Assembly (NCBI GenBank): GCA_963843575.1
Contig: CAWJKZ010000026.1
Span: 126,085 to 190,084, forward strand
DNA length: 64,000 nt
From: an uncultured Acidobacteriota bacterium
GTDB lineage: Bacteria; Acidobacteriota; UBA6911
Reading direction: 5' to 3'
Below the pieces are notes generated by a model that saw nothing but the letters and a program-made list of their open reading frames with translations, ran no database searches and was not told the DNA's origin. Both the position numbers and the translations under genes were made by a program. This document shows positions 43,614-48,799 of this stretch, one piece after another. The stretch's first letter is position 1. The number at the start of each line of letters is the position of its first letter.

Positions 43614-43979
43614 TCAGGACGCCAGGATACGGTTTACTTCCCTGGGGAGATCGACGGGGTTAATTGGTTTTCCGATTACCCCCTTGGCGCCCATGCGGAG
43701 AAGGTCCCGCACGTCCGCCGGATCCGTTTTGGCGGTGTGGAATATCACGGGGATGTTGCCGGTGGCTTCGCTCGACCGGAGCCTCTGGAGTACATCGGGC
43801 CCGTTGAGGTCGTGCATGACCAAGTCCATGAGGATGGCGTCGGGCCGGTTGTCGCGGGCGAACTGAATCGCCTCCACGCCCCCAGTCGCCAGGATTACCT
43901 CGAAACCGCCGACTTCCTGCAGCGCTATGGAGGCGACGAGGAGCATCGCCGGGTCGTCGTCCACCACGAGAATCTTCAT
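43614..43979 (-). CDS. Single-domain response regulator
   Basis: ILVVDDD, LMDLVM, HTA, KP. Confidence 0.9.
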   Translation of the reverse strand: MKILVVDDDPAMLLVASIALQEVGGFEVILATGGVEAIQFARDNRPDAILMDLVMHDLNGPDVLQRLRSSEATGNIPVIFHTAKTDPADVRDLLRMGAKGVIGKPINPVDLPREVNRILAS

Positions 43980-43981
43980 GG

Positions 43982-44371
43982 CTACGTTATTCCTGCGTCA
44001 GCCTGAGTGCCTTGAATCCACCGTTCGATGGTCGTCACCAGGAGCCGGTCGTCGATGATCGGCTTGGTCAGGTAATCGTTGAAACCGGCGGCAAGATATT
44101 TTTCCCGGTCCCCTGCCATTGCATGCGCCGTGAGGGCGATCACCGGCAAATCCCGGAGGCTCGCATCCAGTCTGATATTGCGCACGACCTCGGGGCCATC
44201 CATCTGGGGGAGTGAGATGTCGAGCAGCACCAGGTCCGGCCGATTCTTGCGAATGCCATCCAGAGCCTGCTGGCCGCTCTCGTATTCGACAACCTCGTAT
44301 AAACCCGCCAGCAACACACGGACAAGCTCGCGGTTGTCGGGATTGTCCTCGACCAGCACTATCCGTCTCAT
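43982..44371 (-). CDS. Single-domain response regulator (DivK-like)
   Basis: VEDNPDN, LLDISLP, ALTAHAM, KP. Confidence 0.92.
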   Translation of the reverse strand: MRRIVLVEDNPDNRELVRVLLAGLYEVVEYESGQQALDGIRKNRPDLVLLDISLPQMDGPEVVRNIRLDASLRDLPVIALTAHAMAGDREKYLAAGFNDYLTKPIIDDRLLVTTIERWIQGTQADAGIT

Positions 44372-44736
44372 GATTCCCCTGCTCGCCGTTCCTGCTCGAG
44401 CCGGCTCTTGACCCTCGCGAGAGCGTCGTCCAGATTATGGACGAGCGGCGCAAGTTCTTCACCCCGGCGTTCATAAGCCAGTTGTTCGATGGTACCGGCG
44501 AGTTCGCCGAGTTCGTCCGCCCCTAGGTTGCAGCAGCTGGAACGAATCGCGTGGGCTGCCCGCTCGACTTCCGGGAGTAATCCGGACTCGAGAGCCGCAT
44601 GTGCTGCCTCGACCCTAGATTTCGTGTGCGGCAGAAACAAGTCTATCATCTTGTCGACCAGTTCGTCGCCTCCCAGTTTGTGGAGTCGCGCCAGGGCTTT
44701 GGGGTCGATAACCTGCTTTGGTGTTGAGATGTTCAC
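44368..44736 (-). CDS. Hpt (histidine phosphotransfer) domain protein
   Basis: AAHAIRSSCCNLGA..L motif. Confidence 0.85.
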   Translation of the reverse strand: MNISTPKQVIDPKALARLHKLGGDELVDKMIDLFLPHTKSRVEAAHAALESGLLPEVERAAHAIRSSCCNLGADELGELAGTIEQLAYERRGEELAPLVHNLDDALARVKSRLEQERRAGES

Positions 44737-44964
44737 CTCCCGATCCGATCAATCGAAAATACATCGGGACACTCCCCTGCTGTCAAGCCTGCTGTCCGAC
44801 CCGACCCCCGCCCGGGCAGTCTGGCGCCGGATGAACGATCAGGGAAAAAAAGTCTGATCGGGGAGCGATTCCCCGATTGCAGGAGGGCGCAGCAGGAGTG
44901 CTGAGGTGGGCCGTTCGGATCCGCGAATCCCCAAGATTTGTGGGCGTGGGTAGGGCTGTTTTGG

Positions 44965-44977
44965 CAAATATCTGATT
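44965..44977 (-). promoter_or_regulatory. IHF-consensus-like site upstream of the sigma-54 promoter
   Basis: AATCAG-ATAT-TTG matches WATCARNNNNTTR. Confidence 0.4.
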
Positions 44978-45059
44978 GACAGACATTTAGGTGTGAAATT
45001 ATTCGCCCGCTCCCGGTTCGGTTCTGGTTTTTTTCGGATCCACATCGGAACCCTTTTTC

Positions 45060-45075
45060 TGGCACCGAACGTGCT
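45060..45075 (+). promoter_or_regulatory. Sigma-54 -24/-12 promoter of the putative ncRNA
   Basis: TGGCAC-CGAAC-GTGCT (GG-N10-GC). Predicted start ~45086, just before a hairpin at 45091-45118. Confidence 0.68.
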
Positions 45076-45247
45076 TTCACCCAAGCATCAGCGGAACCCT
45101 TGAGTAGAAGGGTTCTGTTTCACGGGGCGGGTGGAGTACCGGGAATCGTTGACCCGCAACGTCGACATGGCGATGAGGGAAATAGAGGGGCTCAAGAGTC
45201 CCTTCCAAGGGTGGAGCGGCAGGGATAAGACCCGTAAGACCGCCGAT

Positions 45248-45624
45248 TGTTGTGGGCTCCGTCCCTGCCGTTCCGGTTGAGTTAGGGGGATACCGGCACG
45301 GCAGGGGCGCCCACAGCACAACGACATGCGCGGCCGTTGCCGCCAGCGGATGTGGGTCAGCTCTCGCACTACCGGCAGAGTTAGGGGGGGACCGGGAGTG
45401 CGGGGGCTCCCACAAAATAATGGGGTTGGGCGGCGGCGAATCGCTGCAACGGATTGTGGGGTTGCCTCCTGCTTTCGAGGTTTGAGTTAGGGGGGGACCG
45501 AGAAAGCAGGGGCACCCACAAACAATCGTGAATCGAGGGCTTCCCCAGGCCCGCAACGAATTGTGGGGCGAGCTTTCCTGTTTCGGCAGAGTTAGGGGGG
45601 GACCGGAGCAGGGATACGCCCCAC
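45248..45624 (+). repeat. Four structured repeat units at ~100-106 nt period
   Basis: Hairpins at 45251-45315, 45351-45414, 45455-45520 and 45562-45624. Each reads TGTGGG...GAGTTAGGGGG...CCCAC. Confidence 0.9.
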
Positions 45625-45727
45625 CCAAAATTTATGAAATTGCGATTTATTGCGAAGCGCGAGCAAAAACCCCACCATTAACTTGGCGATTCCTTAACCC
45701 GGAATCGCTCCCGCCATAAAGCCTGCT

Positions 45728-45770
45728 GTGAAAAGGGCCCGGATCATTGATTCGGGCCTCTCACCTTTTT
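45728..45770 (+). terminator. Intrinsic terminator
   Basis: GGCCCGGATC-ATT-GATTCGGGCC stem with outer GTGA/TCAC pairing, followed by TTTTT. Confidence 0.65.
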
Positions 45771-45853
45771 AGCGCGACGCCCGCCAGGGCGGCCGAGTAT
45801 CCGGGGGTGGCGAGCCGGGACGTGAATGGCCGAAGCAGGGGGATCCCTCGGGT

Positions 45854-47146
45854 ATGATCGCCGCACTGCGGAAATGGGCTCTCTGGGTTCTATGGTTCAC
45901 GCTGTCTGCCCCGGTTCTCTCCGCCGACTGCCAAGTACCTGCGCAAGCTCCGGTGGAACAGCCGAGAACAGAACCCGGGATGGAACCGGTTATCGTAACT
46001 TCCAGGGAACAGCACCTCATCGCAATGCGGGCCGCAAAGATGCGGCGTATCGAGCCATATCGACTGCGGGGGCTCGAGCGCGGGCTGGCCTGGGTAGAGC
46101 AGAAAGGCATACCACTCCTCGGCATCCGATTTAAGGGATTCCAGCCCCGAGTCGGCGGGCTGCCCACGGGCTCCGGCTTCGCCCTCGGCACGAGTTACGC
46201 TCTTCCGGAAACCGACCGTCCACACCCGGAACTGCGCGGCGTCGCGGTGTGGTCGACGCGGGGCTACCAGCTGTACGGCATACAGGTCGGGAGGCTGGAC
46301 AATGGTGAGCGCGGTGCCTCGGCCTTTGCGGATCTTGCCTACAGGTATGCGCCACAGGAAGACTTCTTCGGGCTCGGCCCGGACTCGCGGGTAGGCGATC
46401 GTAGCGACTTCCTCCTCGAACAGGCTTCCTACGAAGGGGTTGTCGGGTACCGCTTCGCATCCTGGCTGAAAACCACGTTGTCTGGGGGATTTCTGCAGGT
46501 CAATACAGGTCCAGGGACGGACCGCCGGTTCCCCGACACCGGTCGAATCTTCTCCGAGAACACCGCTCCAGGGTTGGCCGCGCAGCCCGACTTCCTCCGA
46601 TTACGGTACGACGTTGTCGCGGAGTACCGCGACACGCCGGGTAATGCCCACAGGGGAGGAATGGTGGCGGCCGCGTTTTCGCGCCTGCACGACCGGGGGA
46701 CCGGCAGCTACAGCTTCAACAGGCTGGAGGTGGACGCGCGGCAGTACGTACCCCTGGGATCTACTGCGGTGCGGGTTCTGGCACTTCGTTTCTATGCGTC
46801 ATCCGACCAGCCCGACAGCGGCGCGTCGGTGCCGTTTTATTTCCAGGAGACACTCGGCGGAGGCGACGCGCTTCGCGGATTTCGCGAGTATCGTTTCCGC
46901 GACCGCAACCTCTTTTTCGCCTCGGGCGAATACCGCTGGGAGCCGGTTCGGGCTGTGGAACTGGTGTTGTTCTATGACGCGGGGAAGGTCTTTTCACGCC
47001 GGAGCGAGTTTGGGTTCGACCGGCTGAGAAAGTCCGCCGGTGCCGGGATCCGCTTCAAGACACAGAGGAGCGTTGTTCTACGGATCGATGCCGCACGCAG
47101 CAGTGAAGGGACCCGAGTTTATTTCAAGTTCGGGCCCTCGTTCTGA
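45854..47146 (+). CDS. Omp85/BamA-TamA family beta-barrel lacking obvious POTRA repeats
   Basis: Signal peptide, LGGGDALRGF..YRF, FYDAG, C-terminal Phe. Confidence 0.85.
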   Translation: MIAALRKWALWVLWFTLSAPVLSADCQVPAQAPVEQPRTEPGMEPVIVTSREQHLIAMRAAKMRRIEPYRLRGLERGLAWVEQKGIPLLGIRFKGFQPRVGGLPTGSGFALGTSYALPETDRPHPELRGVAVWSTRGYQLYGIQVGRLDNGERGASAFADLAYRYAPQEDFFGLGPDSRVGDRSDFLLEQASYEGVVGYRFASWLKTTLSGGFLQVNTGPGTDRRFPDTGRIFSENTAPGLAAQPDFLRLRYDVVAEYRDTPGNAHRGGMVAAAFSRLHDRGTGSYSFNRLEVDARQYVPLGSTAVRVLALRFYASSDQPDSGASVPFYFQETLGGGDALRGFREYRFRDRNLFFASGEYRWEPVRAVELVLFYDAGKVFSRRSEFGFDRLRKSAGAGIRFKTQRSVVLRIDAARSSEGTRVYFKFGPSF

Positions 47147-47164
47147 TTTTGGGGGGATACGGAG

Positions 47165-48799
47165 ATGCCCAGGCCGTTGACCAGGACGCTCACCGCGCTG
47201 GTGCTCGCCGCGACGCTGTCACCGGCGCGGACACCGGGAGTGAAATTTGCGCCCGACGATCCGATCTGGGTCGACCCCGACCGCCTCTCGATTCCCGAAC
47301 CTCGTTCCGTGGAACTCAGCAAGGGGTACGACCTCCTGGAGAACACGTTCGGCGATCCCGGAGGCAAAAAGGGGTCCGCGCGCAACGTGAACACACTGGG
47401 GGAAGTGCCGGATTCAAGCTGGTACACCAATCGGATGATCGGCCCAAACGCCTTGCCCATCGGCGTTTTGACCCTGGGGCCCGGCGGCGGGCAGGGACCG
47501 GACCTTTCCGGTCCAATGATGGTAACCTCGCTCAAGCACGAGGGCATCACCCCCGGGGTGACGATCCGTGACGCGCGGGGCCAGCGGTACATTCTGAAAT
47601 TTGATCCGCTCCAGTACCCGCAGTTATCGACATCCGCCGAGGTCATCAGCACCCGGATGTTCCATGCCTTCGGGTACAACGTCCCGGACAACTCGCTGAC
47701 CCTTTTCTCACCCGGCCTCTTGCGGGTTGCCCCGGAAGCTAACGTCACGGAACCGGGCGGTGGGCGAAGGAGACTCCTGGAGTCCGACTTGCGGAAGATG
47801 CTCGAGAAGGTCCCCAAGTTACACGACGGCAGTGTTCAGGCCATGGCGAGCCTCCTTTTGCCCGGAAAGGCGCTGGGCCCGTTCAAGTACTACGGCACCA
47901 GGAGCGACGACCCGAACGATATCTTCCCGCACGAGGACCGCCGTGAACTTCGCGCACTTCGGGTGTTTGACGCGTGGCTGAACCACAACGATTCCGATGC
48001 CGTCAACACGCTCGATTCCTACGTGGAGGAAGGGGGAACGCGTTTCATACGTCACTACCTCATCGATTTCGGTACGACGCTCGGCAGCGGAGCGTTCGAA
48101 CCAAAGGCCCGGCGCGCCGGATACGAGTACTACCTCCAGCCGTGGCCCGCGCTGAGGTCAGCCATGACGCTCGGGATTCTTGATCGCGGCTGGAGGGGCA
48201 TCCGCTATCCGGACTGCCCTTCGATCGGCCGTTTCGAAGCAGATCACTTCGATCCTGCGAACTGGAAACCGGACTACCCAAATCCCGCGCACGAGCGTTT
48301 GACTCCTGCTGACTCACTCTGGGCGATCCGGATCATGATGCGGTTCGACGAGGCAACCATCCGAGCCTTTGTTCGGACCGGGCAGCTGAAAGACAACGGG
48401 GCGGAAGAGTATCTTGCCGGGGTTCTCGCGGCACGCCGTGAAAAGCTCGTGCGGCACTATCTGTCCCTGTCCAACCCGCTTGATGGTTTTCGTTTCGCCG
48501 ACAATGAGTTGCGGCTGGAATTTCGGGACCTTGCCGCGGAAGCCGGTCTGGCAGCGGTCGACCGCGAGTACGAATATCAATGGTTTGCGTTCGACAACGA
48601 TACGGAGACGGCTTCCCCTACATCGGCGCCGCAAACGACGGCGCACCTTTTCCTGCCGGTGCCGGCGGGGGAACGACCCTTTGTCAAGGTCCGGCTGCGG
48701 ACCTTGACAAAGGACTACCCTGCATGGCGACGCTATGTCGACGTGTACATCCACAACGGCGGGGATCGGAAGATCGTGGGAATCGAGCGGGAATCGTGA
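47165..48799 (+). CDS. Secreted protein with atypical kinase-like motifs
   Basis: Signal peptide, GITPG..YILKFD, AEVI, WLNHNDSDAVN, YLIDFG. Confidence 0.65.
   Translation: MPRPLTRTLTALVLAATLSPARTPGVKFAPDDPIWVDPDRLSIPEPRSVELSKGYDLLENTFGDPGGKKGSARNVNTLGEVPDSSWYTNRMIGPNALPIGVLTLGPGGGQGPDLSGPMMVTSLKHEGITPGVTIRDARGQRYILKFDPLQYPQLSTSAEVISTRMFHAFGYNVPDNSLTLFSPGLLRVAPEANVTEPGGGRRRLLESDLRKMLEKVPKLHDGSVQAMASLLLPGKALGPFKYYGTRSDDPNDIFPHEDRRELRALRVFDAWLNHNDSDAVNTLDSYVEEGGTRFIRHYLIDFGTTLGSGAFEPKARRAGYEYYLQPWPALRSAMTLGILDRGWRGIRYPDCPSIGRFEADHFDPANWKPDYPNPAHERLTPADSLWAIRIMMRFDEATIRAFVRTGQLKDNGAEEYLAGVLAARREKLVRHYLSLSNPLDGFRFADNELRLEFRDLAAEAGLAAVDREYEYQWFAFDNDTETASPTSAPQTTAHLFLPVPAGERPFVKVRLRTLTKDYPAWRRYVDVYIHNGGDRKIVGIERES

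Follow-up and report, generated by a model that had tools for sequence, protein, structure and literature searches.

A non-coding RNA gene with four G-loop hairpins

Within the window analysed here, a 64-kb stretch of DNA from an Acidobacteriota genome that we call G000 (6,684,759 bases in 27 contigs, 64% G+C, 88% complete), positions 45060-45771 of the + strand are the gene for a structured non-coding RNA of ~685 nt that belongs to an undescribed family of small RNAs (sRNAs). From 5' to 3', the gene comprises a sigma-54-type promoter element, four hairpins that display the same G-rich loop, and a conserved 3' module that ends in an intrinsic terminator; a divergent operon for an Hpt phosphotransfer protein and two receivers lies upstream, and an Omp85-family gene follows on the same strand (Table 1). 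An earlier interpretation of the region, made from the letters alone (hereafter the sequence-only reading), had described four stem-loops closed by TGTGGG/CCCAC, and all four, with their loop starts and closing helices, are present on the + strand where it placed them. The comparisons below chiefly involve G001, a congener of G000, and G011, G008 and G003, which are relatives from other genera.

Table 1. Features of the sRNA gene and its neighbours (positions in the window)
Feature	Position	Strand	Remark
G-loop hairpin 1	45251-45315	+	loop motif 45279-45289
G-loop hairpin 2	45351-45414	+	loop motif 45378-45388
G-loop hairpin 3	45455-45520	+	loop motif 45484-45494
G-loop hairpin 4	45562-45624	+	loop motif 45589-45599
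Conserved 3' module	45655-45771	+	8-genome alignment; constant part of the wider sRNA family
Invariant 11-mer AGCGCGAGCAA	45656-45666	+	invariant in 8 of 8 aligned genomes
Module hairpin	45685-45709	+	9-bp stem, 7-nt loop; sequence varies, pairing kept
CCTGCTG box	45722-45728	+	CCTGC invariant in the 8-genome alignment
Intrinsic terminator	45728-45770	+	stem 45728-45764, T run TTTTT 45766-45770
Sigma-54-type -24/-12 element	45060-45075	+	TGGCAC, 5 nt, GTGCT (TGGCACCGAACGTGCT)
Predicted transcript, ~685 nt	45086-45771	+	start inferred from promoter, end from terminator
5' hairpin	45091-45118	+	right after the predicted start; minimum-energy fold
Hpt phosphotransfer gene, 122 aa	44368-44736	-	divergent neighbour; Pfam match
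Receiver gene, 129 aa	43982-44371	-	Pfam match
Receiver gene, 121 aa	43614-43979	-	Pfam match
Omp85-family gene	45854-47146	+	starts 83 nt past the terminator

The four hairpins are 64-66 nt long, together span 45251-45624 and start 99, 106 and 105 nt apart, and each unit of ~100 nt in G000 runs from a small GC hairpin through a linker to the G-loop hairpin. Their loop motif, GAGTTAGGGGG, occurs on the + strand only and has no further exact copy in the window; with one mismatch allowed there are five matches, against 0.93 expected from 100 shuffles, one of which also reached five. Across the whole genome, the frame TGTGGG..AGTTAGGGGG..CCCAC gives four forward matches, all at this locus, and none on the reverse strand or for a reversed control, and the hairpin's covariance model recovers these four and, beyond them, just one partial match (E 0.47). 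Folded singly, the hairpins of the array reach -33.6 to -48.2 kcal/mol, with a stem of ~22 bp and a loop of 14-16 nt whose apical part ends in T-A-G7 and adjoins a CCGG/CCGG closing helix. T-A-G7 and its flanks, an invariant part of 9-12 nt, are unpaired in all 13 single-sequence folds. The sequence-only reading had also pointed to T-G oppositions that pair only on the + strand, and folding agrees with it: the + strand folds better than its reverse complement in 12 of 13 hairpins from seven genomes, and for 45086-45775 it reaches -328.4 kcal/mol (z -6.5) against -283.6 kcal/mol (z -4.05) for the - strand, with 20 shuffles each. The four-hairpin array is real, strand-specific and far from chance.

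Stems covary while loops are kept

We built a covariance model from hairpin 2 of G000 and G001 and re-aligned the hairpins to it; this replaced an alignment by MAFFT and RNAalifold of 13 hairpins, in which the arms were misaligned and only nine pairs were recovered. In the resulting alignment of 15 hairpins from nine genomes, 91.6% of cells are paired and 18 of the 22 pairs change on both sides, in support of the claim that the inner stems vary in sequence and stay paired. No shuffle out of 500 reaches any of five measures, and when the 3' partners are slid by one to three columns only 38-53% of cells remain paired. The single-sequence folds of the 13 hairpins are independent of this model-fitted alignment. 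The conservation pattern is the same throughout: loop and stem base are kept in sequence, and the stem is kept only in its pairing.

The two arrays of the genus can be compared position by position. Between G000 and G001, the orthologous hairpins 1-3 differ by seven double compensatory changes, six one-sided wobble changes and one broken pair, the change count for hairpin 4 being unreliable since its rows are aligned in different registers. Over the same distance the loops of hairpins 2-4 show no change in 17 columns, and the loop of hairpin 1 differs in three. Homologues show both compensatory change in the stems and conservation of the loops.

These data also bear on whether the locus is an RNA gene at all, rather than a DNA repeat (REP/MITE, CRISPR-like, or a set of recombination sites), a transcript of the - strand or several small open reading frames (ORFs) in a row. 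Tandem, evenly spaced imperfect palindromes are what a DNA repeat would look like, the longest open frame (184 codons) lies on the - strand, and stop codons fall in the loops. Against this, the array is at a single locus of its genome, with no sign of the dispersal expected of REP or MITE elements, and is syntenic with that of G001; the G-T oppositions favour the + strand; and the stems vary while the loops are constant, which is the reverse of CRISPR repeats. The lone match to a CRISPR-repeat model lies outside the array (45773-45796) and scores 17 bits against a gathering score of 35. As for coding, the 184-codon frame is broken in G001, the similarities between open frames of G000 and G001 are scattered over all frames, with protein identity (42%) below DNA identity (78%), and no ORF is conserved, so that the absence of a credible ORF noted earlier holds in comparison too. 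We regard an origin other than an RNA gene as barely credible.

The 3' module defines a family of sRNAs

The sequence-only reading had treated the stretch downstream of the fourth hairpin as a mere tail and terminator; this was wrong, for 45655-45771 form a conserved module, which is what stays constant across the family. A DNA search of 60 related genomes matched G001 over query positions 192-729 (78% identity) and six genomes of other genera over the last ~110 nt of the query only (~200 nt in G011), with one marginal 39-nt match elsewhere in the query, in G019. The module has an order common to the other genera: the 11-mer, the 9-bp hairpin, TCC..CC, CCTGC and the terminator. The 11-mer is mostly unpaired in the predicted structure, in which it forms two weak, non-covarying pairs only. 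In the module hairpin, seven of nine pairs change on both sides and 98.5% of cells are paired over 33 rows, and in the terminator all eight modelled pairs (helices 3-5) change on both sides across relatives. Over the whole module alignment of 33 rows, which retains three weak reverse-strand or partial matches, 94.6% of cells are paired, 15 of 19 pairs show double changes, and none of 500 shuffles does as well.

The search of relatives with a covariance model, which the sequence-only reading had suggested, did bring up homologues. A model of the module (R2) matches 33 of the 51 genomes of the bacterial family, in seven of its 11 genera, and 17 of 28 when only genomes at least 90% complete and at most 5% contaminated are counted. 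The window's own module scores 129.4 bits, by construction, since it is a member of the model's seed. Outside the family, 86 genomes that represent 21 further families of the class were searched; six gave matches, all of them weak (E 3.8e-5 to 8.4e-4). In public genome contigs the module pattern occurs in at least 120 stretches, and 80 loci were tested with R2; among the matches listed, two are members, L097 (66.9 bits) and L071 (60.5 bits), both from metagenome-assembled genomes titled Acidobacteria or Acidobacteriota, and two are weak, L056 (21 bits) and L084 (13.8 bits). The new sRNA family is restricted, among the genomes searched, to one family of Acidobacteriota.

Rfam 15 has no family that reaches its gathering score in the 64-kb window, and in 20 homologous loci the only match at that threshold is one tRNA. 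When matches with E up to 10 are admitted for 44700-46000, only eukaryotic microRNA models, the CRISPR repeat mentioned above and Clostridiales-2 appear, all far under their cut-offs. The idea that the locus holds an unrecognised class of RNA therefore stands in so far as no Rfam family covers it, and falls in so far as the array was taken for a class of its own: it is the amplified unit of a wider family.

The hairpin unit was amplified within one genus

When the hairpin model was run over 30 loci around module matches, G000 and G001 gave four hairpins each (2 of 30). A further 19 loci gave a single one on the same strand as the module when E up to 1 is admitted, 16 of these with E below 0.1. 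The remaining nine gave none by the model; two of the nine show T-A-G7 just upstream of the module by a regular expression. Run genome-wide over the 51 genomes of the family, it finds tandem arrays only in G000 and G001. The single-copy relatives have the same order of small hairpin, linker and G-loop hairpin ahead of the module. In G001 all four hairpins recur in unchanged order, and the promoter block and the 3' end are shared as well. Each hairpin of G000 is closer to its positional counterpart in G001 than to its siblings, so the amplification predates the split of the two species. The array is a genus-specific four-fold amplification of one hairpin unit. In metagenome contigs, at least 118 stretches have two loop motifs 85-115 nt apart, and none of the 80 loci tested matches the hairpin model, so this search added no further four-hairpin array.

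Two further arrangements of the hairpin were seen. G011 has a second, solitary G-loop hairpin at positions 565-632 of locus L318 (contig C283), just past the end of an ORF and with no recognisable module, and the G-loop hairpin may be used as a module in other transcripts. At locus L040 of G003, G-loop hairpin and module are ~500 nt apart, and the ~430-nt stretch between them is bounded by a direct repeat of ~19 nt, at its start and directly before the module, as if it were an insertion into the sRNA gene.

Promoter, transcript ends and expression

The -24/-12 promoter that had been proposed at 45060 is present, and lies within a block of 19 nt that G001 shares without a difference, in an intergenic region most of which has diverged. 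Equivalent elements lie upstream of the homologous RNA in G011 (genus g11) and G008 (g8), where a regular expression finds them, and in G003 (g3), where we found the element by reading the sequence of L040, so that with the genus of the window (g1) four genera carry one; the same expression matches far upstream in loci L023 and L041, which may be chance. The element has GG at -24 and GC at -12 with 10 nt between, as in the TGGCAC-N5-TTGC consensus. G000 encodes RpoN (one Sigma54_DBD match) and has 26 Sigma54_activat matches, 21 of them at E of 1e-46 or better. Expression of the RNA probably depends on sigma-54. Genus g2 has no sigma-54 element; by reading of its sequences, it has instead a conserved inverted repeat over a -35/-10-like pair, of the type TAC-CA, 8 nt, TG-GTA, ~150-330 nt upstream of the module (loci L017-L038), which looks like an operator for some regulator.

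A 13-nt direct repeat (92% identical) at 45043-45055 and 45089-45101 brackets the sigma-54 element, and its second copy supplies the 5' arm of the RNA's first hairpin. The stem of this 5' hairpin is retained in the alignment with G001 despite several changed stem positions. At the other end, the terminator is where the sequence-only reading had put it, and its pairs covary in relatives; a simple consensus scan does not list it on the + strand because its T run starts more than 2 nt past the core stem.

Among public sequencing runs, a sediment metatranscriptome (X1) contains more of the stretch than any other, with 0.30 of the sampled words. Over 44000-47200, its contigs at least 99% identical to the locus cover 45115-45316 (202 nt) and 45441-45626 (185 nt) inside the RNA and 44348-44573 in the Hpt gene, at depths of 2.7-4.2, and show neither strand nor ends. 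X1 has no contig over 44574-45114 or past 45626, gaps that prove nothing, and run X20 has none at all. The X1 contigs are a weak hint that the array RNA is expressed.

The regular repeat unit of 99-106 nt raises the question whether the transcript is a precursor that is cut, for example by RNase III within the stems or RNase E within the linkers, to yield four siblings of ~100 nt and the 3' module. Perfect or near-perfect stems of at least 20 bp are RNase III substrates, and genus g2 multiplies the whole gene instead, with up to six module matches per genome (two to six in 14 of its 23 positive genomes), so that both routes would raise the dose. Yet only the last unit has the terminator and the module, no internal promoter or terminator was seen, and both X1 contigs inside the RNA exceed one unit, though contigs cannot show ends. 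We consider such processing improbable.

Genomic surroundings

The operon upstream reads Hpt, receiver, receiver on the - strand (43614-44736), with Hpt first and with 4-nt and short overlaps. The 158-aa open frame listed at 43998-44474 is not the gene; the receiver is in the frame 43982-44371. In G001 (84% identity) and G011 (43%), too, the RNA has an Hpt gene upstream of it and divergent from it; elsewhere, in other genera, a histidine kinase or a NarL-type response regulator is encoded next to the RNA. As two-component genes repeatedly adjoin the RNA, this arrangement suggests that two-component systems may control the RNA or be controlled by it. Also in other genera, the RNA is flanked by genes for a TonB-dependent receptor and for cytochrome oxidase subunit II, the second of them convergent.

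The Omp85-family gene is downstream on the same strand in G000 and G001 only. There, 83 nt past the terminator, it invites a reading of the RNA as its cis-acting leader or attenuator. The RNA, for its part, ends in a terminator with covarying pairs, and the gene is not a constant partner: in G011, the 1.5 kb that follow the RNA contain no Omp85 homologue, and their largest ORFs begin at a distance of over 650 nt, with the longest running on the opposite strand; 13 loci of g2 share the convergent cytochrome oxidase subunit II gene as downstream neighbour; and several genomes hold two to six copies of the RNA in differing contexts. A role as leader is very improbable.

Several features of the region between the Hpt gene and the RNA deserve mention in their own right. 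The 29 nt at 44767-44795, just upstream of Hpt, are 72% identical to the module end at 45701-45729, and the exact 11-mer AAGCCTGCTGT is common to 44785-44795 and 45719-45729. The Hpt leader on the - strand would be complementary to the CCTGCTG box of the sRNA; G001 keeps 8 nt of this match and G011 none. Between the sRNA promoter and the Hpt start, at 44857-44877 (-), is a terminator-like hairpin with a T run, whose core block is conserved in G001 and which has a similar counterpart, also with a T run, in G011; it may act as an attenuator in the leader of the Hpt operon. Within the same hairpin, a 12-mer is reverse-complementary to a stretch of one arm of the module hairpin.

Comparison with known regulatory RNAs

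The array shares traits with several well-studied RNAs. Like CsrB and RsmX/Y/Z, it has several hairpins that show one G-containing loop motif in variable number, and an intrinsic terminator. It differs from CsrB/RsmZ, which have short hairpins, in its stems of ~22 bp and loops of 14-16 nt, and its motif is T-A-G7, not A(N)GGA; it has no Rfam match. Promoters of the CsrB/RsmZ type depend on GacA/UvrY, whereas that of the array is of the sigma-54 type. Each loop of the array has GGA at the end of its G run; the conserved element is the G7 run, and GGA is common at 64% G+C.

A sigma-54-type promoter and the repetition of one motif are also found in CrcZ and CrcY of Pseudomonas, a sponge for Hfq-Crc that depends on sigma-54 and CbrB and whose motifs are A-rich and unstructured. 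The motif of the array is instead G-rich, sits in a hairpin loop on a long stem and is not AANAANAA-like, and G000 gives no match for Hfq; Rfam again offers no match. With the Qrr sRNAs of Vibrio the array has in common a sigma-54-type promoter and a place beside phosphorelay genes, from which it is divergent (Hpt and two receivers), an arrangement kept in two genera. In Vibrio, qrr1 is a neighbour of luxO-luxU, and LuxU is itself an Hpt protein. Qrr RNAs, though, are ~100 nt long, Hfq-dependent and equipped with one conserved seed, Rfam has no match for the array, and its contig has no sigma-54 activator gene, next to the RNA or elsewhere.

A motif repeated in the loops of one transcript or of tandem siblings is also characteristic of the cuckoo/CcsR, LhrC, RoxS/RsaE and 6C sRNAs. 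Their loops are C-rich and pair with Shine-Dalgarno regions; those of the array are G-rich, with the polarity of a Shine-Dalgarno sequence itself, and the array has no match in Rfam here either. From the same phylum as the array, the structured RNAs Acido-1 (RF01686) and Acido-Lenti-1 (RF01687) have been described for Acidobacteria as candidate trans-acting non-coding RNAs (PMC2864571). Neither is among the Rfam matches at E up to 10 in 44700-46000 or at gathering score in the 20 homologous loci. A full-text literature search returned no report of an Acidobacteriota sRNA tied to sigma-54 or with such loops.

Searches for RNA targets

The RNA might act as a regulator with several seeds, its G-rich loops pairing with C/U-rich stretches of mRNAs in a mirror image of the C-rich-loop sRNAs, and with the 11-mer of the module as a possible second seed; four loops would then make the seeds locally more concentrated, or allow a single RNA to hold several targets. 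At 9-12 nt, the invariant loop part has the typical length of a seed and is always unpaired in the folds, and the 11-mer is invariant and mostly unpaired as well. The target searches are less favourable. In G000, complements of the loop of 10-14 nt occur only at the locus itself, apart from one or two isolated 10-mers, and the rRNA operon contains no C run complementary to it. Hybridised to 51,114 candidate start regions, the loop reaches a mean of -21.6 and a best value of -38.8 kcal/mol, no better than the reversed loop (-22.4 and -41.0 kcal/mol); at 64% G+C an energy-based target search of this kind is uninformative.

The 11-mer has four exact complements elsewhere in G000, where composition leads one to estimate ~5, and two of the four are within ~40 nt of a candidate start codon. 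Its complement is not enriched over a reversed control in G001 (12 against 9), G011, G008 or G003, and none of 30 sites fetched from these four relatives is beside a homologue of the two G000 candidates. G000, at its 88% completeness, has no match for Hfq; within the family, 48 of 51 genomes give weak Sm/Hfq-like matches, which in 34 cases pass the Pfam cut-off. Regulation by multiple seeds ranks second among the readings considered, only a little less probable than the decoy discussed below.

Another reading would have the loops mimic Shine-Dalgarno sequences, the four-loop RNA being a sigma-54-induced decoy for the anti-Shine-Dalgarno of the 30S subunit or for another reader of Shine-Dalgarno sequences. 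If G-U wobbles are admitted, T-A-G7 can pair with the tail at the 3' end of the organism's 16S rRNA, at a predicted -11.0 to -11.6 kcal/mol. Among 20,000 random 16-mers of the genome, 6.9% reach -10 kcal/mol or better with this tail and 2.1% reach -12 or better. As ~2-7% of random 16-mers do as well, a ribosome decoy is possible and not specifically supported, and we hold it to be quite improbable; if it were true, the RNA would be a global brake on translation initiation, or a re-programmer of it, rather than a gene-specific regulator. The 3' end of the 16S rRNA with its downstream sequence is present twice on contig C24 of G000, at ~346,100 and ~351,800, 5.65 kb apart. It is also conceivable that G7, together with runs of G in the stem, switches between hairpin and G-quadruplex.

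Discussion

It is highly probable that the locus encodes a real + strand sRNA of a new family, in which a hairpin has been amplified. We propose the following model for its action. A signal would reach a sigma-54 activator, upon which one transcript would be made that displays four identical G-rich loops on rigid stems of ~22 bp. The loop would be the working part of the hairpin, and its four copies would make the transcript multivalent. The transcript would then work in trans, as a multivalent binder or decoy of whatever recognises the loop: a C-rich RNA, or an RNA-binding protein specific to the loop. Stability, termination and possibly a second contact site would come from the single 3' module. 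For this explanation as a whole (new family, tandem amplification, sigma-54 promoter and multivalent mechanism) we estimate a probability of about 0.45.

A motif that varies in number beside a constant module is the pattern of titrating RNAs such as CsrB, RsmZ and CrcZ. We favour a decoy because the RNA shows this very pattern, because its conserved positions extend beyond the loop into the closing helix and the stem base, and because no complementary target stands out. Multivalent titration as the mode of action nonetheless remains a tentative choice, to which we would give somewhat less than even odds.

Several observations weigh against this explanation or against parts of it. On the side of structure and mechanism, both covariation alignments are fitted to models and lean towards structure; the stems of the array are far longer and its loops larger than in known protein sponges; and no partner for the loop emerged from the searches. 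The four-copy form is found in two genomes only, and most members of the family have a single hairpin, which is not multivalent on its own, so that the ancestral role of the loop was not titration by avidity. CsrA, an obvious candidate given the likeness to CsrB and present in G000, is unlikely to be the partner: it is absent from 12 of the 33 RNA-positive genomes, and nine of these 12 are 95-100% complete; at least seven of these CsrA-less genomes carry a G-loop hairpin at E below 1e-3; and the RNA is as frequent without CsrA (12 of 18 genomes) as with it (21 of 33). On the side of expression, the -12 box begins with G, not T; ~30 matches of such promoter quality are expected by chance in a genome of this size by an estimate from composition, so the weight of the element comes only from its conservation; and a Sigma54_activat search found no activator gene on contig C26, which carries the array. 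The X1 contigs are of low depth, and an RNA library can hold DNA.

Riboregulation in Acidobacteriota, among the most abundant phyla of soil, is almost unstudied, and the family described here is well defined: present in 33 of the 51 genomes, it combines a clear core with strong covariation. It also offers a natural dosage experiment, in which one lineage multiplied the hairpin within the transcript and genus g2 multiplied the whole gene, and the type of promoter changes between genera of a single RNA family. As the polarity of the G-rich loops is opposite to that of C-rich seed loops, their partner is likely not a ribosome-binding site. Identifying this partner would reveal a new RNA-binding protein or else a new way in which one RNA controls another. 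Should the RNA prove to be an ordinary base-pairing sRNA, it would still be a useful first handle on signalling from phosphorelay to sigma-54 activator to sRNA in this group of bacteria.

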